From positions 17,051 to 81,050 of the forward strand of contig CAZBPS010000010.1 in assembly GCA_964493865.1 (NCBI GenBank): 64,000 nucleotides of DNA. The letters are read 5' to 3'. The DNA comes from an uncultured Flavipsychrobacter sp. (lineage in GTDB: Bacteria > Bacteroidota > Bacteroidia > Chitinophagales > Chitinophagaceae). The notes below the pieces were generated by a model, which was not told the origin of the DNA, did not search any database, and saw only the letters and a list, made by a program, of their open reading frames with translations. The translations under genes were made by a program, and so were the position numbers. Below are positions 1,238 through 54,470 of this stretch, piece by piece. Positions within the stretch are counted from its first letter, which is position 1. Each line of letters begins with the position of its first letter.

Positions 1238-2500
1238 ATGCAGTTTACGTTAAGATTAAAGGGATTCCTGAGGATCACATTGTTTTTCATTATTATCGCA
1301 TCAGCGATTGCATTTGTGTCTTACAGGGCGTGGTTATACTTTTCGTACCGGGATATCATGCGCAAAACTGCGGAAAAACGGGTAAGGAATTTTGAGCCAA
1401 AGCCCTTTGAATATAAAATTGCCATTAGCGATACGTCGCAAAAGGGCTACCTGCTGATAGCGCCTTATGTGCGTTTTAATTTAAAGTATGGCAGGCCGGT
1501 GATAATGGATACAAGGGGCAACAAAATACTGGAAAAACAGTGTAAAGGTGCCGTCATAGATTTCAGGCAGTGGGAAATTAACGGGCGCATCTATTATACT
1601 TATGGCGTAGATGATTCCGCCGCGCATCACGTAACACTTTCGGCGGGGCATGTGGTAATCCTTGATTCTGCATTAAACGAAATAAAGGAAGTGCACCTGA
1701 TACCTCACAAAGACATTACGACCAACAGGCATGAAGACCTTGACCTGCATGACTTTATCATGCTGTCGGAAAACCACTTTATAACCATGACAACATATAG
1801 TAAGCATGTTGACAATATCCCAGCATTCCTTACCCCGTCACCTGCAAACAAAGTGGCAACAACTATCATACAGGAAATAAAAGACAGTGCCGTGGTATGG
1901 CAATGGGACGGCAGCAATTATCCCGAATTTTATGTAAACAGCGAAATAGGAAATAAATTTTATGACACGGTAGCCCAGGACTACATGCATATAAATTCAA
2001 TGACGATAGACCCTGTTGACAGTAACCTGATCATATCACTACGCCAGTTGAACCAGATCATAAAAATAAGCCGAAAAACGGGGGATATCATCTGGCGCCT
2101 TGGCGGGCGGAACTCTGATTTTCCACTCACCTCAGACCAGATATTCCTTCGCCAGCACAACGCGACACTAACAAACGACGGGAGCTTGCTGATATTTGAT
2201 AACGGAGAAAAAGCACAGCGCCCTTATTCGAGGATACTGGAATTCAAACTGGATGAGAGAAAGAAAACGGTCGTATCGTTCAAGCCATACAGGATACAGG
2301 AGCCCCTTACAGAGTCACTTGGATCAGTTCAGAAAATAGGTGCCGATTACCTTATTTGTGGTGGATCGGCAAATTATGTTCTTTTGGTAAACAGCATAAC
2401 AGGTGAACGTAAAATGAGGCTGGTTGCAAACCAGTCGATGTATCGGGCATATCTGGTAGATAATATTAAAGGCATCATGCAAAACAAGACAGGAAATTAG
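1238..2500 (+). CDS. Arylsulfotransferase (ASST)-like beta-propeller with N-terminal membrane anchor, paralogue 1
   Basis: Motifs DLHDF, YMHINS, ISLRQ, WRLGGRNSDF, LRQHNA, FDNG; hydrophobic N-terminal segment. Confidence 0.8.
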   Translation: MQFTLRLKGFLRITLFFIIIASAIAFVSYRAWLYFSYRDIMRKTAEKRVRNFEPKPFEYKIAISDTSQKGYLLIAPYVRFNLKYGRPVIMDTRGNKILEKQCKGAVIDFRQWEINGRIYYTYGVDDSAAHHVTLSAGHVVILDSALNEIKEVHLIPHKDITTNRHEDLDLHDFIMLSENHFITMTTYSKHVDNIPAFLTPSPANKVATTIIQEIKDSAVVWQWDGSNYPEFYVNSEIGNKFYDTVAQDYMHINSMTIDPVDSNLIISLRQLNQIIKISRKTGDIIWRLGGRNSDFPLTSDQIFLRQHNATLTNDGSLLIFDNGEKAQRPYSRILEFKLDERKKTVVSFKPYRIQEPLTESLGSVQKIGADYLICGGSANYVLLVNSITGERKMRLVANQSMYRAYLVDNIKGIMQNKTGN

Positions 2501-2504
2501 CGGA

Positions 2505-3752
2505 ATGCAGGTTACCATAAAAATAAGAGGGCTACTCAAGATCATTGTCTTTTTTGGCATCGTATTGCCATCGGTGCTGTATTTCTTTTACAAGTCTTTC
2601 CTATATGTGCGCCGCGAGGCAATCATTTATCTGAAAACAAACAAGGTATTTAAATACACTTTCGAAACAAAAGATACATCGGCACAGGGGTACATATTAC
2701 TGACACCTTCGCTGCCTGTGAACCTTGATTATGGAAAAATAGTCATAGTAAACCTTAAAGGAGATTTAGTGCTGGAACGCAGAATAGAAGGGGTAGTTTC
2801 TGATTTCCGTCAATGGAACGTAAACGGGCGGTTACGCTATTCTTACATGGTGCACGACACAAGTGCCGACCAGCGTTTAGCACTCGCGGGCTCTGCAAGA
2901 AAAGCGGTAATACTTGACTCCGCACTGAATGTAATAAAAGAGATTAAACTGCTGCCCTATAAGGACATAGTAACCTACAACAGGCCGGGACTCGACCATC
3001 ACGACTTTATTATGCTGTCTGATGACCATTATATCACTATGTCATTGTATATAAAAACCGTAACCAATATTCCCGTTTACCTGATACAATCACCAAAGAC
3101 AAGGATAGCAGCGCCACTGATACAGGAAATAAAAAATGACTCGGTAGTGTGGCAATGGGATGGCAGTCACTATCCCGAGTTGTATGTGAACAGTACAATG
3201 GGAAATAAATTCTATGATACAATCGAACCTCAGGACTATGCGCATATGAATTCCATGTTCATAGATTCCCGTGATAGTAACCTTATTCTTTCCCTACATA
3301 ATAATAATCAGATAATAAAAGTGAGTCGGCGCACCGGCGCCATCATATGGCGGTTGGGCGGCAGGAACTCTGATTTCGAACTGACCGTTGAGCAGGTATT
3401 CCTGCGCCAACACCACGCAACACTAATTGACAGTGGCCGAACGCTCCTGCTATTCGACAATGGTGAAAAATCCGCAAGGCCCTACTCACGTATACTTGAG
3501 TTCGGGCTGGACGAATTGAATAAACGAATAAGCTCATTTAAGGCCTATAAGGTACCGGGCCCTTTTGCAGGTACACGCGGATCTGTTCAAAAGGTCGGCA
3601 ATAATTATTACATCTGCGGCGGGTCTGCCAATTATGTGCTGGAGATAGATGGCAGAAGCGGCGAAAAAGTAATGGAACTGAAAACAAATCAACCACTGTA
3701 CCGTGCGCATATAGTGCAAAACATTGATGGAATGCCTGCCGATAAAAAGTAA
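2505..3752 (+). CDS. Arylsulfotransferase (ASST)-like protein, paralogue 2
   Basis: Motifs DHHDF, YAHMNS, LSLHNN, WRLGGRNSDF, LRQHHA; collinear with paralogue 1 over its length. Confidence 0.8.
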   Translation: MQVTIKIRGLLKIIVFFGIVLPSVLYFFYKSFLYVRREAIIYLKTNKVFKYTFETKDTSAQGYILLTPSLPVNLDYGKIVIVNLKGDLVLERRIEGVVSDFRQWNVNGRLRYSYMVHDTSADQRLALAGSARKAVILDSALNVIKEIKLLPYKDIVTYNRPGLDHHDFIMLSDDHYITMSLYIKTVTNIPVYLIQSPKTRIAAPLIQEIKNDSVVWQWDGSHYPELYVNSTMGNKFYDTIEPQDYAHMNSMFIDSRDSNLILSLHNNNQIIKVSRRTGAIIWRLGGRNSDFELTVEQVFLRQHHATLIDSGRTLLLFDNGEKSARPYSRILEFGLDELNKRISSFKAYKVPGPFAGTRGSVQKVGNNYYICGGSANYVLEIDGRSGEKVMELKTNQPLYRAHIVQNIDGMPADKK

Positions 3753-15997: not shown

Positions 15998-18900
15998 TTA
16001 TTGTTCTACTACGAAGTGGAACACAGCTTTCTGAGTGCCTGAACGGAGGTTAAGTAAATACATACCATTAGCAAGGTTGTTGCTTAACTGTATTTGCTCT
16101 TCAATATTTCCGTTGCGGCTCATTATTTTGTTATTGTAGATAACCTGACCAATCATGTTAGTTATCTCAACTGACATTTCTTCGTCTGCAGCATTGCCAA
16201 ATGCACCCTTGATAGTGAATGTGCCTTTGTTCGGGTTCGGCACAAGTACTACAGTATTGTTTGCATTAACCTGATCAACACCTACACCTGAAGCACGAAG
16301 TGTAAGGGTCAGAGATTTTTTAAGTGAGTTTCCACCACATGGGCCGCTGGCAGTAACGATAACTGCTATTGAATCCCTGTTGAAGAACTCCTGGCGTACG
16401 AATGTAGCGTTAGTTGCACCGGCAATCTCATGACCGTTGATATACCACTGGTATGTTGGGTTGCTGCCGCCATTGGTAACAAATGCGTGCAAAGAATCAA
16501 CCTGCCATACATCGATACCAATGCCAGGGAACGCACGCAATACAACAGAAGGAGTAAGTATTGCTTCATGAGCAACTACCGCAGTACCTAACATTGTGTT
16601 AGGGCAATAAGTAATCTGGCTTGTTGCTTCGATAGTATAATTACCGGTCATATTCTGCAAACCAAAATCAAGTGGTGCGCCGGTAGCGTCAAGAGAACCA
16701 AGTGTAGCAGAACCATTACGCAGATAGTAACGGATGCCTGGCTCTGAACCGTCGAGGCCAACAACAACACCTGCACCACCAGGGCAGAATGTTCCGCCGC
16801 CGGTTACGTTATGTACATCAGGTAATGGAATGATATTAACAGTAACACTACCCAACATATCGTTGCTACAATTTGGCAAAGCAGATGTTTCAGTAGCTCT
16901 AACTGTATAAGTACCTGCAACGTTCTGCAAGCCAAGGTCGATTGCCGCACCTGTACCATCAGCACTGTCAACGAGAATTGCACCTCTCCATAATTTATAT
17001 CTCACGTCGACATCAGAATTAGGCAGGTAAACATGCACACCTGAATCTGTAGCGCAGAAATAACCCGGATATAGTGGATTAGGACCTGTGATAGATGTGA
17101 GGTAAGCAGTGGGCAATGATTTTACATTAATGGTTGCACTGCCTGCCATGTCGCTTTCACAGCCGGTTGAAGCGTTAACTGCATGAACAGTATAAGTTCC
17201 GGTAGTTGCTATCGCACCGAAATCAAGTGCTGCATCTGCACCACCTACAACAGCGCCCACAGGGGTAGTGCCATTCAATAATTGGTAGTTAACACCTGTA
17301 TTACCCATATCAAGACCAACATGTGCACCGGCAGTACCGGCACAGAATGTTCCACCGCCGGTAACACTATGTACCGTAGGAAGCGGATTTACACCTACTG
17401 TAACATCACCTGTCATAGAGCCTGTGCATAGATAAAGATCATTAGTAGCTACCACGCTGTATACATCAGGAGAAGTCATCAGCCCAAAGTCGAGTGATGA
17501 GCCTGTACCCGGCAGAATAGTACCTGTTGGTAACCCACCAGCGTGCAATTCGTAAGTCCATCCTATTTGTGAGCCACCAAGCATTACCGGTACACCAGTA
17601 CCACCCACACAATAATTACCACCACCTGTAACAGAATATAGGGTAGGTAGTATATTATTGATAATAGAGCTTCCTGACATGTACCTGGAGCAACCGCTAA
17701 GCAGGTCATTAGCTTTTACTGTATAAACACCATTCGTCTGGAAACCGAAAGTGATTGGCATTCCGGCAGCCCCCGGCATAGCAGGACCTACAGGAATCAA
17801 GCCACTGTAAAGCTGGTATTCTACATTGTCGTCGGAACCGGTTAGAGAAACTTCTACACCTATACCGCCATCGCAATAATCGCCACCAACTGAAACCACG
17901 TAGCTTGTTGGCAATGGCTTAACAAATATTGAAGCGCTGGAGTTCATTGCATTCGAGCAACCTGTAAGTGGGTTTGTAGCCACAACAGTGTATGTGCCGC
18001 CAGCAGTTTTTAAACCGAAATTAATAGCCGAGCCACTACCTGCAACCGGAACACCAACCGCACTTGTATTGTATAGCTGGTAACGGATCCCGCTTGTAGA
18101 GCCTGTAATGCCAACATTCACCCCTGTGCCACCGGAGCAATATTCACCACCGCCGATAACATCAAACGCAATAGGTAATGAATTGATAGTGATAACAGCA
18201 CTGCCTGACATTGCTTTTGAACAAAGGGTTGCGCCGTCAGTTGCGTATACTGTATAAGTGCCTGCAAGTACCTGAGGACCGAAATCCAAGGCAGCGCCTG
18301 TACCCGCTAATGTAACAGGTATTGACAATGGCAAACCGTTATGGTATAAATCATAGTTAACGCCAACTGTAGAGTTGCTGAGGCCTACGTTAACACCGGC
18401 ACCACCAGCGCAATAGCTGCCACCGCCAGTCACGGTGCGTACAACAGGCAACGGGTTGATACCCACTGTTGCCGGATTGAGCATGCTCACCGAGCAGTTT
18501 GTAGTAGTATTCTTAGCCACTACTGTATAGGTTCCGGCAGGGGTAATCAAACCAAAATCTATTGGTCCGCCACCGCTACCCGGTAAAGCGGTGCCTACCG
18601 GAGTAGCACCTTTATATAACTGGTAAGATACGCCGGCATCAGAATTAGAAGTACCGACAGGAACTCCCACACCTCCAAAGCAATAATTACCGCCACCTGT
18701 TACCATATACTGCGCCGGCAACGGATTGTTAGAGACATTTGTGCTGCCGTTCATATTGTTAACACAACCTGTAGCAGTGTTCTCGGCACTAACAGTATAA
18801 TTACCCGAAGCTGTTACCAGGCCAAAGTCAAGGCTAGTACCAGAACCGGAAACAGTGGTAACAGGTATTCCATATTGCTTTAGTGTATAATTAACACCCG

Positions 18901-24900: not shown

Positions 24901-26202
24901 ATGCCATTCTCTGTCTCTGTATTCTGGTTTCGCCGCGACCTGAGGCTTGATGACAATGCCGGACTGTACCACGCGCTTGCTTCCGGCCAGCCGGTATTGC
25001 CCGTATTCATTTTTGATACCAACATACTGGACACGTTAGAAAACAAAAAAGACAGCCGTGTACACTTCATACATGACGCGCTCACTGCCATCCAGAAAGA
25101 ACTGGTAAAAGCAGGCAGCTCGCTCTTGGTATTGCATGGCACCCCTAAAGATTGCTTTAAAAAACTACTACGTGAATACAGCATTTCTTCTGTTTATACC
25201 AACCACGATTATGAGCCATTTGCCAGCGGACGAGATGAAGCAATAAAGAACCTGTTAAATGAAAACGGCGCAGGCTTCTATACTTATAAAGACCAGGTGA
25301 TTTTTGAAAAAAGCGAAGTGGTAAAAGAGAATGGTGAGCCCTATACTATATATACGCCCTACAGCCGCCGGTGGAAAGAAAAAGTGGGCGCACGGGTGCC
25401 TGTTTTCGAAACAAAAAAACTCTTTGGCAATTTTCATAAACAGGCAGCACAACCTCTCATATCTTTAGCGGACATAGGCTTTGAACATGCTCCGCCGGTT
25501 ACTGTATCAGCAAAACTGAATGAAGATATAGCAAGGCACTATGACAAAACACGGGACATACCAGCCATGGCCGGAACAACAAAAATGGGCGTGCACCTGC
25601 GATTTGGCACTGTGAGTATCCGCACTCTGGTGAACAAAGCGCTACAGCTAAACGCTACCTATCTTAATGAACTTATATGGCGTGAATTCTATCAGATGAT
25701 CTTATGGCATTTCCCATATGTTGTCAATCATTCTTTCAGAAAAGAATACGACAAAATAACGTGGCGAAATAATGAACATGAATTTTCGTTATGGTGTGCC
25801 GGCCAAACGGGTTTCCCTATTGTGGATGCCGGCATGCGTGAACTGAACGAAACCGGGTTCATGCACAATCGTGTAAGAATGATAGTGGCCAGCTTTCTTA
25901 CCAAAGACCTGTTGGTAGATTGGCGATGGGGGGAAGCGTACTTTGCAGAAAAGCTCCTCGACTATGACCTGGCGGCCAATAACGGAAACTGGCAATGGGC
26001 GGCAGGCACCGGATGTGATGCTGCTCCTTATTTCAGGGTTTTTAATCCGGAACTGCAAACAAAAAAATTCGATCCCGGGCTCGAATATATAAAGAAATGG
26101 GTGCCGGAATTCGAGGGCTTGTCCTACGCTCGCCCCATTGTGGACCACAGCCATGCTCGCGACAGATGCCTTATGGCTTATAAAAAAGCCCTCGGCAAAT
26201 AA
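24901..26202 (+). CDS. phrB: Deoxyribodipyrimidine photolyase (class I)
   Basis: WFRRDLRLDDN, ELIWREFY, GFPIVDAGMREL, MHNRVRMI, NNGNWQW, FRVFNP. Confidence 0.95.
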   Translation: MPFSVSVFWFRRDLRLDDNAGLYHALASGQPVLPVFIFDTNILDTLENKKDSRVHFIHDALTAIQKELVKAGSSLLVLHGTPKDCFKKLLREYSISSVYTNHDYEPFASGRDEAIKNLLNENGAGFYTYKDQVIFEKSEVVKENGEPYTIYTPYSRRWKEKVGARVPVFETKKLFGNFHKQAAQPLISLADIGFEHAPPVTVSAKLNEDIARHYDKTRDIPAMAGTTKMGVHLRFGTVSIRTLVNKALQLNATYLNELIWREFYQMILWHFPYVVNHSFRKEYDKITWRNNEHEFSLWCAGQTGFPIVDAGMRELNETGFMHNRVRMIVASFLTKDLLVDWRWGEAYFAEKLLDYDLAANNGNWQWAAGTGCDAAPYFRVFNPELQTKKFDPGLEYIKKWVPEFEGLSYARPIVDHSHARDRCLMAYKKALGK

Positions 26203-26282: not shown

Positions 26283-26576
26283 TTAGTGGTAAACCACTTC
26301 CATGCCTAATCTGATTGCAATATCCCGTTCCAGCATAGCATCGCGGCTTTCCTGCCAATCGGGAAGCAGGTGTACCTCATCACACTCCAGCATTTTTTTT
26401 ATTTCCGAACGGACAGACTCATCCCAGCTTTTCTGGTCATTATGATCTGCCATTTTCAAAGGGTTAATAATGTGATACCCTTTCTGAATAAGTTTATTGG
26501 CAACATAATTGAATTTTTCCTTCACATTATCGATGGGAAGCCCCGACATTTTTCCTGCCACATATGCTGTTCTCAT
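26283..26576 (-). CDS. DUF4406 family protein (nucleoside 2-deoxyribosyltransferase-like fold)
   Basis: YVAGKMSGL, IINP, MLECDEVHLLPDWQESRDAMLERDIA. Confidence 0.85.
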   Translation of the reverse strand: MRTAYVAGKMSGLPIDNVKEKFNYVANKLIQKGYHIINPLKMADHNDQKSWDESVRSEIKKMLECDEVHLLPDWQESRDAMLERDIAIRLGMEVVYH

Positions 26577-26666
26577 AACATCTGGTTTTATGGTTAGTTT
26601 TCAACAGTTTTTACGTGCGAAATATCACGAAAACCATGCCATGACCAGAGTGTCTTGTTGTTTTTC

Positions 26667-26798
26667 TTATAAGAAAAATGAAAAGAGTGTGTTCAGCAGT
26701 TTTGGCCTTGATACTCTTTTACGCATCTTATTTTGTCTTTTCGCATTTTCTATGAAGGTGAGCAGTAGTTCATGCTTTAACTCTTTCCTGGTTTTCAT
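26667..26798 (-). CDS. Small basic protein (43 aa), not in the ORF track
   Basis: Manual translation MKTRKELKHELLLTFIENAKRQNKMRKRVSRPKLLNTLFSFFL; lies co-oriented between the DnaA-C gene and DUF4406. Confidence 0.4.
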   Translation of the reverse strand: MKTRKELKHELLLTFIENAKRQNKMRKRVSRPKLLNTLFSFFL

Positions 26799-26857
26799 AA
26801 AAGCCGTTTATAAAGTTTCCATGAGTTTTTTTCGCTTGTTATTATTTACTACAAACA

Positions 26858-27319
26858 TTATGCCGTAGCCGCCAATGGATAAACAGACGCTTCGTTCTTC
26901 AGCCAGAGGTCTATCGCTTTCTCCGCTGCTGCGTATTTTTCAAGAAACCTTGAATCCTCTATGTGAATGAGCTCATATGCCCTCATCAGGCCGCTGATGA
27001 CCGATGAATGGTCTTGCCCGCCAAAAAAAGCCGCGATTTGCTGCAACCTCACTTCGGGGAAATACATGCGTATAAAATGGGCTCCTATAAACCTCAGTTC
27101 TACCACATCGCGGGCCCTTGTTTTCATTTTATAACACATGGGGTCCATTCCGAGCGCAATGGCTATTTTATAAAGCATATGCTCCGGTGTTTTGATTGTG
27201 CCGTAGGTGGGGTACAGCATCACTGATACATTGATACCGGTTTTGTTCTTTATCGTCTGTTGTGCCGAGCGGGCTATGTGGCGCGCTGTTTTGATTCCTG
27301 TTTCCTGCCTGTTTTTCAT
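26858..27319 (-). CDS. Stand-alone DnaA C-terminal (domain IV) helix-turn-helix protein
   Basis: KTRARDVVELRFIGAHFIRMYFPEVRLQQIAAFFGGQDHSSVISGL resembles the DnaA domain IV signature (...[20 protein letters not shown]); no AAA+ domain. Confidence 0.8.
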   Translation of the reverse strand: MKNRQETGIKTARHIARSAQQTIKNKTGINVSVMLYPTYGTIKTPEHMLYKIAIALGMDPMCYKMKTRARDVVELRFIGAHFIRMYFPEVRLQQIAAFFGGQDHSSVISGLMRAYELIHIEDSRFLEKYAAAEKAIDLWLKNEASVYPLAATA

Positions 27320-27363
27320 ATCCTTTCTTTTTACGGTTAATTATGTATTTTTGAATTATTCAA

Positions 27364-27396
27364 CAAATATATTCCAAATTATTTGACAAATCCAAA
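27364..27396 (-). promoter_or_regulatory. Consensus Bacteroidota primary-sigma promoter for the DnaA-C operon
   Basis: On the minus strand: TTTG (27396-27393), 21-nt spacer, TATATTTG (27371-27364), matching TTTG-N19-21-TAnnTTTG. Confidence 0.75.
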
Positions 27397-27405
27397 TAAT
27401 TTGGA
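27373..27405. promoter_or_regulatory. Tandem operator pair TCCAAAT-W-ATTTGGA
   Basis: TCCAAATTATTTGAC (27373-27387) and the perfect palindrome TCCAAATAATTTGGA (27391-27405). Confidence 0.75.
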
Positions 27406-27427
27406 AAAATAATTTTACTTTTGTGGT

Positions 27428-28240
27428 ATGTTCTTATCGGGAAATCTGAAATTTTTACGAAAAAAAGCAGGCAAAACGCAGGATGCGCTTAGCACAGAGC
27501 TTAAAATAGGCCGCACCACGATAGCCAACTATGAGGCCGGTATCAGCGAGCCAAGTGTGGAGAATTTACTGGCTCTTGCCAATTTTTATGGCGTGTCGCT
27601 CGACAATCTTTTGTCAAAAAATATGGAGGACATTGTCAAGTCCAATGAAAAAGACATTATGCTCAGGAGCGCAATGCCGGGCCAGGCGGCAGGGTACAGC
27701 AATATGCCACGAGTAATAACAGTGGACAATAGCGGGAATGATAATATTATATATGTGCCTGTGAAAGCAAGGGCAGGGTACCTGATAGGATATGGGGATA
27801 CGGAATTTATTGAAACACTGCCCACGTTCCGCTTACCGGGACTAAGCAATTCTACTTATAGAATGTTTGAAGTAGAGGGGCCGTCAATGGCGCCGAATGT
27901 GCTGCACGGCGACCGTATAATTGGCGAATGGGTAGAAGGGCTGGAGAATATACGCGACAACAGGGTGCATGTGGTGGTGCATTCGGAAGGGGTGGCCGTG
28001 AAGCGTGTAGTGAACCGCCTGAAAGAGCGTGGCAAACTTTACCTGAAATCTGATACCATTGTTCACCGCCATGAATTTCCCACAATAGAAATAGACCCCG
28101 CAGATGTGCGCGAAGTGTGGTACGGCCGTATGAAGATAAGCAGCGACTTCAGCGAGCCTGCCGAAGTGTACCATCGACTCGCCGACCTGGAAATGGATAT
28201 GATGGAAATGAAACGCGAGAGGAAGGAGGGGGAGAAATAG
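27428..28240 (+). CDS. XRE-HTH + peptidase S24 (CI/LexA-like) self-cleaving repressor
   Basis: N-terminal HTH (LKFLRKKAGKTQDALSTELKIGRTTIANYEAG), Ala-Gly site KARAGY, catalytic Ser (EGPSM) and Lys (AVKRV). A TACTTTTG -7 box at 27416-27423 lies 4 nt before the ATG. Confidence 0.92.
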   Translation: MFLSGNLKFLRKKAGKTQDALSTELKIGRTTIANYEAGISEPSVENLLALANFYGVSLDNLLSKNMEDIVKSNEKDIMLRSAMPGQAAGYSNMPRVITVDNSGNDNIIYVPVKARAGYLIGYGDTEFIETLPTFRLPGLSNSTYRMFEVEGPSMAPNVLHGDRIIGEWVEGLENIRDNRVHVVVHSEGVAVKRVVNRLKERGKLYLKSDTIVHRHEFPTIEIDPADVREVWYGRMKISSDFSEPAEVYHRLADLEMDMMEMKRERKEGEK

Positions 28241-28528
28241 TTATTTGCCTTGGGAATTGTCTATCAAATCCTGATACTCCGGGTGTTTTTTAATATACAT
28301 TGTCACAAAGGGGCAATATACAATTACTTTTAGGTTGTGCGCCCGGGCATGGTCAAGCACATGCTGCGCCAGTTTATCGCCTATGCCTTTGCCACGCTCT
28401 GATACGGGCACCAGCGTGTGCATGATGACCATGCTGCCACGCAACCATCGGTATTCCATGGTCGCAATTTCTCCTGAAGGAAATGTTATCTCAAACCTGA
28501 ACTGCCTTTTATTGTTTATTATCTCCAT
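28241..28528 (-). CDS. Small GNAT acetyltransferase (YjdJ-like)
   Basis: HTLVPVSERGKGIG, VIVYCPFV. Confidence 0.85.
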   Translation of the reverse strand: MEIINNKRQFRFEITFPSGEIATMEYRWLRGSMVIMHTLVPVSERGKGIGDKLAQHVLDHARAHNLKVIVYCPFVTMYIKKHPEYQDLIDNSQGK

Positions 28529-53649: not shown

Positions 53650-54470
53650 ATGTGATAAGTTATACAAAGGTACTCAAATAAAACAGCCCGAATTATGAGC
53701 TAAGCCATATTTCACAAACCCTTTTAATCCACCAATCCACATTCCTAATAAATACTTTTAAAATTTTAAAAAATCTTTACCATTACTATTAGGGCGTGGA
53801 ATATGGGGAAAGAAAAAAGTTATCCTTCTTGCAAAATTAAAAACAGCATTTTATCAACACCCCAACTAAAGTATATAACACAAGAAATTGCGGAAAATAC
53901 TGCAAACTCACACAAATTATGTGGATTGTGGAAAAGCAAACGTGTGAAAAAGTAACCGAGCCTTAATATCGTAGATGGGTGTGAACAAAGGGTAAAGGAA
54001 AAAGGAAAACAACGCTATTCACACGACAGTTAATTAGTTATGAGATAAAAAAGAAAGATTTACAGGAGAAAAACCAAGTTATCAACACCTAAAAACCTAA
54101 AGCGAAGTACAGAACCACCATATGTGAAAACAAAGGAAATAAAATATTAATATTATCGGTTGGCTACCCACATATTATTAAGGTACCAACATGGATTTTG
54201 GGTTTTGTACATATTATGATACTATATAAACAGAATATCTACATAAAATCTATGTTTTACACACAGAATGCACAACAACTGTTAATAGCAGTATATAAAT
54301 GGAATTGGCAGTAAAAAGCAATAAATAAATATTTATATCACCGAAAACTAAAAATAAAACAATACGAAGTTTTATATTTAAAAATAAACCGTCAAAACCG
54401 CTAATAACGCTACAAAATCTCATTTTTTCCCATAAATTTGCCGTCCTTAATATTAAACATAACACAAACC
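53650..54470. other. Candidate chromosomal replication origin (oriC)
   Basis: AT-rich gap between divergent genes. Exact TTWTNCACA matches at 53927, 53943 (both reverse) and 54255. One-mismatch boxes at 53660, 53708, 53851, 53889, 53980, 54015, 54079 and 54123. parS sites and mnmG lie within 4-7 kb. Confidence 0.6.

Follow-up and report, generated by a model that had tools for sequence, protein, structure and literature searches.

The 64,000-nucleotide stretch analysed here (the window: positions 17,051 to 81,050 of the forward strand of contig CAZBPS010000010.1, assembly GCA_964493865.1, from an uncultured Flavipsychrobacter sp.) contains a cassette of four genes at 26283-28240, in which a repressor gene is divergent from three leftward genes. 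Our analysis points, with a probability that we put at about 0.72, to the repressor of a Mu-like phage that was co-opted by the host and now controls a mini-SOS regulon of two operons, together with a relic of the phage early region that the host has kept.

The four open reading frames (ORFs) are intact and lie where a preliminary description of this DNA had placed them, between a photolyase gene (24901-26202) and a small GNAT gene (28241-28528). The repressor gene (27428..28240, + strand) encodes 270 amino acids (aa) with an HTH_XRE and a peptidase S24 domain. The leftward genes, all on the - strand, encode a 153-aa protein consisting of DnaA domain IV only, hereafter DnaA-C, in which an N-terminal helix precedes the DnaA DNA-binding fold (26858..27319), a 43-aa basic peptide with a hydrophobic C-terminus of the form KHELLLTF...RPKLLxTLxSFFL (26667..26798) and, as the final gene of the operon, a 97-aa DUF4406 protein resembling nucleoside 2-deoxyribosyltransferases (26283..26576). 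Pfam domain calls were judged against the curated cut-offs, and all those made earlier were upheld. In the repressor, HTH_3 scored 57.9 bits (1e-15, residues 7-59) and Peptidase_S24 26.5 bits against a cut-off of 23.3 (residues 141-224); Bac_DnaA_C (PF08299) in DnaA-C scored 34.5 bits against 31.5, and DUF4406 (PF14359) 71.4 bits against 22 (8.6e-20). PHROGs grouped the S24 protein with phage repressors, and the DUF4406 protein matched PHROG 355 (1.6e-24), a group of nucleoside 2-deoxyribosyltransferase-like phage proteins. With PF05014, the true nucleoside deoxyribosyltransferase family, the DUF4406 protein reached 15.1 bits, which is below the cut-off of 28.8, and no functional literature turned up for DUF4406. 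The 43-aa peptide had no family match in profile searches of Pfam, PHROGs and NCBIfam.

The Ala-Gly cleavage site and the Ser/Lys dyad of the repressor had been described as intact; the residues concerned, Ala116-Gly117, Ser153 and Lys192, are invariant in 47 orthologues and align with those in Supplementary Data S5 of the study of Bacteroidetes non-canonical LexA proteins (Sanchez-Osuna et al., NAR 2021, PMC8565304). When the C-terminal half of the repressor was compared with a subset of the published sequences, identity was 34-43% to the LexAs of the CTAA group, 29-31% to those of the GGA group and 16-22% to LexA, UmuD and CI. The family signature, VPxKAxAGYLxGYxDxEFxExLPxFRLP ... RxFEV.G.SM.P ... 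KR, is present in the repressor together with the C-terminal helix. In a tree constructed with IQ-TREE, the family clade was separated from LexA/UmuD (COG1974) and from lambda-type CI with support of 96/96. In the same tree the Flavipsychrobacter S24 proteins (100/100) were nested within repressors of Mu-like viruses (87/91, inner node 93/81) and were not grouped with the published cellular groups. The C-terminal identity and the family clade place the repressor with the non-canonical S24 proteins of Bacteroidota that the preliminary description had cited, and as judged from the sequences the protein is a member of this LexA family that probably descends from the c repressor of a Mu-like phage. 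RecA is encoded in the same genome, on contig C12.

The repressor gene is preceded by some 60 bp of DNA that are near-invariant in 47 species in which synonymous sites are saturated. This block contains two abutting 18-bp operators with a centre-to-centre spacing of 18 bp. The first, O1 (TTCCAAATTATTTGACAA, 27372..27389), has the form TTCCAA-N5-TTGACAA, fills the spacer of the leftward promoter and is conserved in the 47 species. The second, O2 (ATCCAAATAATTTGGAAA, 27390..27407), has the form ATCCAA-N5-TTGGAAA, lies just upstream of the -7 box of the repressor gene and holds the perfect palindrome TCCAAAT-A-ATTTGGA, which is unique in the genome. The consensus of the -7 element in Bacteroidetes is TAnnTTTG, and on this basis a leftward box, TATATTTG (27364..27371, - strand), was assigned to the operon of DnaA-C, the peptide and DUF4406; its equivalent, CAAAGATA, is kept in the orthologues. 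The rightward box, TACTTTTG (27416..27423, + strand), has a TAnnTTTG counterpart in the majority of the 47 species, though not in every one. Since it stands 4 nt before the ATG of the repressor gene, the repressor mRNA is predicted to be leaderless or near-leaderless. With two 18-bp sites in the conserved block and TAnnTTTG boxes facing both ways, the claim that the operators cover the divergent promoter region is borne out. A probable third operator, O3 (CTCCATATTTTTTGACAA on the - strand, 27611..27628), is located within the repressor coding sequence about 221 bp from O2. Its position weight matrix (PWM) score of 21.8 is the fourth-best genome-wide, and across its TTGTCAA the serine codon is TCA in 38 of 38 orthologues and the leucine codon TTG in approximately 33 of 38, despite saturated synonymous divergence. 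This conservation suggests that the intragenic site is a third operator. The published LexA motifs CTAA-N5-TTAG and GGA-N5-TCC were absent upstream of the repressor gene and of its paralogues. A DnaA box within O2 (TTTTCCACA, reverse strand, in most species) was considered and discarded: its critical C varies between species (G, T, C or A on the top strand), while the palindromic half-sites are fixed.

The PWM was built from 86 orthologous sites and used to scan the 5.05-Mb genome to which the window belongs, in which O1 and O2 were the two highest-scoring sites, in that order. This genome has just one other tandem pair. It lies at positions 3513 and 3532 of contig C19, directly upstream of a gene encoding a Y-family polymerase of 480 aa with IMS and IMS_C domains (pol IV-like), and the next gene of that operon encodes a radical-SAM protein of the PA0069 family (NCBIfam, 486.8 bits; cut-off 360). 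Roughly 20 genomes of the genus have the operator at a fixed distance from the orthologous polymerase gene, often with a second copy 19-28 bp upstream, and the sites overlap the operon promoter. The operator was absent upstream of the polymerase orthologues in three other families. A search of 41 genomes of the genus for exact TTCCAA-N5-TTGACAA returned 42 matches, compared with 9 for the reversed-pattern control; a control with an N6 spacer gave 6 matches vs 5 for the reversed pattern of that search. Of the 30 exact matches that were fetched, 22 were at the repressor locus and the other 8 at the polymerase locus, and at least 8 of the remaining 12 fall at these two loci by their coordinates. 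Across the genus, the operator occurs almost only at the repressor promoter and at the polymerase/radical-SAM operon, and the other PWM matches in the genome of the window were mostly intragenic or away from promoters. Genes for PA0069 radical-SAM and DinB-type proteins are published members of the Bacteroidetes SOS regulon (PMC8565304), and the operator shared with the polymerase/radical-SAM operon is new support for a role of the repressor in the response to DNA damage.

The distribution of the cassette was evaluated in two surveys. In the first, 40 related genomes were searched and approximately 16 kb were fetched around 20 of the DnaA-C matches. The DnaA-C gene was present in 23 of the 24 genomes of the same genus, and the other families of the order gave only true DnaA. 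The second survey covered 51 named loci from a species-representative collection (Flavipsychrobacter, Nemorincola caseinilytica, 'Taibaiella sp.' and metagenome-assembled genomes of Chitinophagaceae). The pair of repressor and DnaA-C was present in 51 of 51 loci, as divergent neighbours wherever the locus was long enough to judge; these two are the only universal components of the module and neither was ever lost. Many loci have the same host flanks, with the photolyase on one side and GNAT/YceI on the other. In most species the leftward operon contains three further genes beside those for DnaA-C, the peptide and DUF4406, namely a MuB-like gene (AAA_22, 283 aa; PHROG 296 'DNA transposition protein', 2e-32), p105 (105 aa, no known family) and a homologue of Mu Gam (170 aa; PF07352, 1e-23), and the order in these fuller species is MuB-like, DnaA-C, p105, Gam, peptide, DUF4406. 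The peptide is often longer in orthologous loci (66-83 aa, by N-terminal extension), and DUF4406 is found in roughly half of them. MuB, p105 and Gam are all gone from the lineage of the window and from a few others, and in the 51 loci MuB was lost in several independent events. Most sister species have, at the orthologous site, the MuB ATPase and Gam that the window lacks. The cassette, which had been taken for a self-contained unit of 2 kb, is instead, from this comparison, a deletion derivative of a 4.5-kb module carried by most sister species.

No Mu portal, Mu F or terminase gene adjoins the cassette, and the flanks are host genes with conserved synteny. The earlier statement that integrase and virion genes do not flank the cassette holds for the Mu-type queries used: these, which do not cover other types of integrase, turned up a Mu transposase or virion gene within about 8 kb in only one of the 51 loci, and no MuA-like match within that distance in any of them. 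In the cultured strain Nemorincola caseinilytica JCM 32105, a Mu-type portal gene (locus L077, ~15.7-16.4 kb) lies about 7 kb from the relic module.

Similar gene orders were found in recognizable Mu-like phages. The same genome harbours a Mu-like prophage on contig C1, with Portal_Mu, Mu F, an rve-like transposase of 737 aa and MuB; downstream of MuB the prophage carries DnaA_C-like and p105-like genes, DUF3164 and DUF4406, in an order that matches the module. In IMG/VR, viral contigs of ~37-38 kb have at their extreme end a gene for a full-length homologue of the repressor (38-53% identity), divergent from a Ner-like gene, a transposase of 650-700 aa (Mu-transpos_C) and MuB. One Mu-like viral contig also has a Bac_DnaA_C gene and a Gam gene further downstream of MuB. 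A search of viral contigs with the DnaA-C alignment as query gave no match, and one with the repressor alignment did. Because the gene order is shared with the C1 prophage and the IMG/VR contigs, the module, and with it the cassette, is a reduced Mu-like early region from which Ner, MuA, both phage ends and every late gene have gone. The C1 prophage (~478-499 kb, locus L040) seems complete, including a terminase-like gene; the gene at its repressor position encodes 245 aa, has no Pfam match and is unrelated to the S24 repressor.

The proteins of the relic module were also found to share short C-terminal endings. In loci L043-L093, -AA is the ending of most MuB-like, p105 and Gam proteins, and -SA, -TA or -EA is frequent at the end of DnaA-C; only 0.35% of the long ORFs in the genome of the window end in -AA. 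These ends may be a phage-inherited C-terminal degron of the ClpXP type. A degron specific to domestication was considered as well, and this specificity was dropped since MuB of related free Mu-like contigs (L162, L166 and L168) likewise ends in -AA.

The ratio of nonsynonymous to synonymous substitution rates (dN/dS), computed against the closest species at dS 0.5-1.0, was 0.016 for the repressor, 0.070 for DnaA-C, 0.069 for the 43-aa peptide and 0.134 for DUF4406, compared with 0.079 for the photolyase and 0.037 for a UvrD-like helicase. Identity of the repressor across the clade is 64-98%, a higher conservation than that of the adjacent photolyase. By these ratios all four cassette genes are under purifying selection and not decaying. 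The peptide, with this dN/dS and its retention in more than 30 species, is a genuine gene, as had been claimed. The preliminary description had left open whether the cassette is a prophage relic or a domesticated module; with a Mu-like origin, a fixed site throughout the genus and purifying selection, it is both. It had also raised the cases that the gene set might occur solely inside intact prophages, or that the cassette might be missing from sister strains and decaying. The homologous set was indeed found in a real Mu-like prophage, that of contig C1, and in viral contigs of the Mu type; it is not confined to them, and sister species carry the cassette under selection.

From these data the following sequence of events is proposed. 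A Mu-like transposable prophage would have become fixed in the ancestor of the Flavipsychrobacter clade, leaving the cassette as the remnant of its early region, and the host would have retained the prophage c repressor as a LexA-like regulator. In undamaged cells, repressor dimers would occupy the operators, so that the polymerase operon and the leftward relic operon are repressed and the repressor is autoregulated. Upon DNA damage, RecA filaments would stimulate self-cleavage at Ala116-Gly117 by the Ser153/Lys192 dyad, and both operons would be derepressed. DnaA-C, which keeps most of the residues that contact a DnaA box, could act at sites resembling such boxes.

Several observations weigh against this proposal. 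The predicted regulon comprises only two operons and, at the stringency used, does not include recA, uvrA and similar genes. Five other paralogues of the LexA family are encoded in the genome next to ImuA-like genes, and therefore the repressor is not the sole damage regulator and perhaps not the main one. The direction of transfer from phage to host would follow from gene order and from a moderately supported tree (87/91, 93/81), and damage induction, autocleavage and operator occupancy are presumed from knowledge of the family and from conservation. Furthermore, no convincing position was found for a -33 element in the promoter of the repressor gene.

The five paralogues are about 30% identical to the repressor of the window (loci L003 and L005-L007) and are located at ~11.9-12.7 kb of contig C36, ~21.5-22.2 kb of C20, ~1.9-2.6 kb of C17, ~13.0-13.7 kb of C37 and ~15.5-16.1 kb of C2. 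Four of them, on four contigs, are near-identical, as is the DNA upstream, and each of these four is divergent from a gene for a 246-aa ImuA-like protein (NCBIfam ImuA 1e-18, below the cut-off). The loci resemble multi-copy LexA-type/imuA mutagenesis cassettes with palindromes of their own; that of the C2 paralogue is TGGAAACAT-N-ATGTTTCCA.

An alternative, the replication checkpoint that the preliminary description had put forward beside an abortive response, places the weight of the system on DnaA-C. The switch would mainly serve to produce DnaA-C after damage, which would block initiation at the DnaA boxes of oriC while the DUF4406 protein acts on nucleotides; DnaA-C would then be a phage host-takeover factor re-used as an SOS brake. 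DnaA-C is the sole cargo gene present in 51 of 51 loci, whereas MuB was lost independently several times, and its predicted structure is that of a true DnaA domain IV. The AlphaFold model (predicted local distance difference test score, pLDDT, 79) had its best fold match in 1j1v_A, DnaA domain IV on a DnaA box, with a template modelling (TM) score of 0.82. Over 1j1v_A and 3pvp the TM score was 0.82-0.84 and the root-mean-square deviation 2.2, there was no other convincing match, and DnaA was the only match in a sequence profile search of the PDB. The equivalents of R399, R401, R407, P423, D433 and H434 of E. coli DnaA are conserved (R68, P88, D103 and H104 are conserved in DnaA-C), T435 is replaced by Ser, and the equivalent of H439 is not conserved, which counts against this alternative. 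R399, P423, D433, H434, T435 and H439 are residues that contact the bases of the DnaA box. DnaA-C is thus predicted to bind DNA, possibly with a DnaA-box-like specificity. Domains I and III were not found in the 153-aa protein, which has one extra N-terminal helix and scored 23-26 bits against NCBIfam DnaA models with cut-offs of 344-410, and without domains I-III it could bind DNA but not initiate replication. On the other side, no target site of DnaA-C was found, the DnaA-box look-alike in O2 differs at its critical position between species, and the homologues of DnaA-C in Mu-like phages, which lie after MuB in the C1 prophage and further downstream of MuB in the viral contig, could equally be transcription factors. 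The position near a predicted origin, to which importance had been attached, carries little weight: the best DnaA-box cluster and the cumulative GC-skew minimum, in a noisy skew, lie at about 53.9 kb of the window, ~26 kb from the cassette, and the true dnaA gene is on contig C16. On balance we consider a replication checkpoint of this kind unlikely. Its fullest form, in which the captured c repressor is a genus-wide SOS regulator and DnaA-C a damage-induced brake that competes with DnaA at oriC, is likewise unlikely; if true, it would be an SOS replication checkpoint of a type not described in bacteria. The cluster itself (window ~53900-54300; C10:70977-71305) contains three DnaA-box-like 9-mers, is tied for the densest in the genome and is a possible oriC.

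Two other explanations take the cassette as a defence against phages or as a locus without function. It might be an immunity module, in which the repressor, elsewhere with MuB and Gam, hinders superinfecting Mu-like phages and the operator at the polymerase operon is secondary. Immunity conferred by the repressors of defective prophages is known, the module is phage-derived, and the clade bears Mu-like prophages, including the Portal_Mu match in L077. However, the Mu-like viral relatives all have different operators and the repressor of the C1 prophage is unrelated, the repressor and its operator are frozen over 47 species, unlike an arms-race locus, and the lineage of the window dropped MuB and Gam yet keeps the switch, so that we regard this explanation as improbable. 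The cassette could also be an inert, decaying prophage scar whose repressor merely silences leftover phage genes and has no function for the host. The variable gene content, with MuB, Gam, p105 and DUF4406 each lost in some lineages, and the reduced version in the window would fit such a scar. Against it stand dN/dS values of 0.02-0.13 in all four genes, like those of housekeeping neighbours, the persistence of the S24/DnaA-C pair in all 51 loci despite saturated dS, and the conservation of the operator at a distant host operon; this reading is strongly disfavoured and in our view very improbable.

Under the preferred reading of a co-opted repressor with a small regulon, the closest known systems are the Bacteroidetes non-canonical LexAs (PMC8565304). 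The cassette repressor resembles them in its HTH_XRE (CI-like) N-terminus and S24 C-terminus with Ala-Gly and Ser/Lys, in the motif KAxAGYLxGYxDxEFxExLPxFRLP and the C-terminal helix, in the predicted autoregulatory palindrome in its own promoter, and in that it is predicted to control genes for a DinB-type polymerase and for a radical-SAM protein of the PA0069/SplB type. It differs in its operator, TCCAA-N5-TTGGA/TTGACAA and not GGA-N5-TCC or CTAA-N5-TTAG; GGA-N5-TCC in its extended form is TTGGA-N5-TCCAA, with the half-sites in the reverse order to those of the cassette operator. It also stands as a lineage of its own among the Mu-like phage repressors, has a regulon of only two operons, and is apparently still located within a prophage early region whose genes it would control. 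The Flavipsychrobacter clade was not part of the published data set, and the same study reports diverged palindromes in paralogues (PMC8565304). A second parallel, compared by concept and not by homology, is FddR of Francisella, a phage-derived S24 repressor that is conserved in its genus, regulates itself and a divergent unit and has been suggested as a starting point from which an SOS network could be rebuilt (PMC13148647). FddR belongs to another phylum and recognizes GTG-N11-CAC. In comparison with FddR, the cassette has an identifiable Mu-like donor, an identifiable cargo and a distal translesion-polymerase operon that has already been recruited.

The cassette was also compared with two classical phage systems. 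As in the early region of phage Mu (c, ner, A, B, kil, gam), the repressor gene is located at the end of the phage genome and divergent from the early operon, and a MuB-like ATPase and Gam occur in matching order in the sister species and in related viral contigs. Unlike Mu, the cassette has no MuA, Ner, phage ends or virion genes, and its repressor is S24/CI-like and not Mu Rep-like. Mu of E. coli is not known to have a DnaA-domain-IV gene or DUF4406, both of which are present in the cassette. The lambda CI/OR system is similar in having a repressor of the self-cleaving S24 type and, by prediction, adjacent operators over divergent promoters, with a repressor mRNA that is probably leaderless and perhaps a third site, farther away, for looping. 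In contrast to lambda, identity to CI in the S24 domain is 22%, no equivalent of Cro was found in the window, and the operators are abutting 18-bp units, unlike those of OR.

The switch had been presented as a candidate undescribed system. This was overstated, since publications exist both on the family of the regulator (PMC8565304) and on the idea that a phage repressor is co-opted to control a divergent unit (FddR, PMC13148647). What is new here is a lineage and an operator class within the Bacteroidetes LexA family, the Mu-like descent and the phage cargo that is still attached. Two recent papers make the case for SOS networks being rebuilt when the S24 repressor of a disabled prophage takes over host repair genes (PMC8565304, Figure 9; PMC13148647), and the locus would be an unusually clear intermediate in such a process: the donor is Mu-like, part of the early operon is still attached and selected, and exactly one host operon has acquired the operator. 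The model is directly testable in a cultivable relative. In addition, the conserved stand-alone DnaA domain IV protein, present in every member of the clade, is a candidate for a DNA-binding effector under damage control.

Two further features were recorded near the operators of the regulon. In the window, a second conserved TATTTTTG box (27346..27353, + strand) is located upstream of the operators, and GTATTTTTGA is kept in most of the orthologous intergenic regions; this box might act as a more distant promoter for rightward transcription or belong to the leftward 5' untranslated region. On contig C19, a DUF5131 gene and a gene for a 365-aa GMT-like winged helix-turn-helix protein (1631-3461, locus L094) lie directly upstream of the polymerase operon and are divergent from it; this pair is phage- or defence-like and may be the marker of a variable island.

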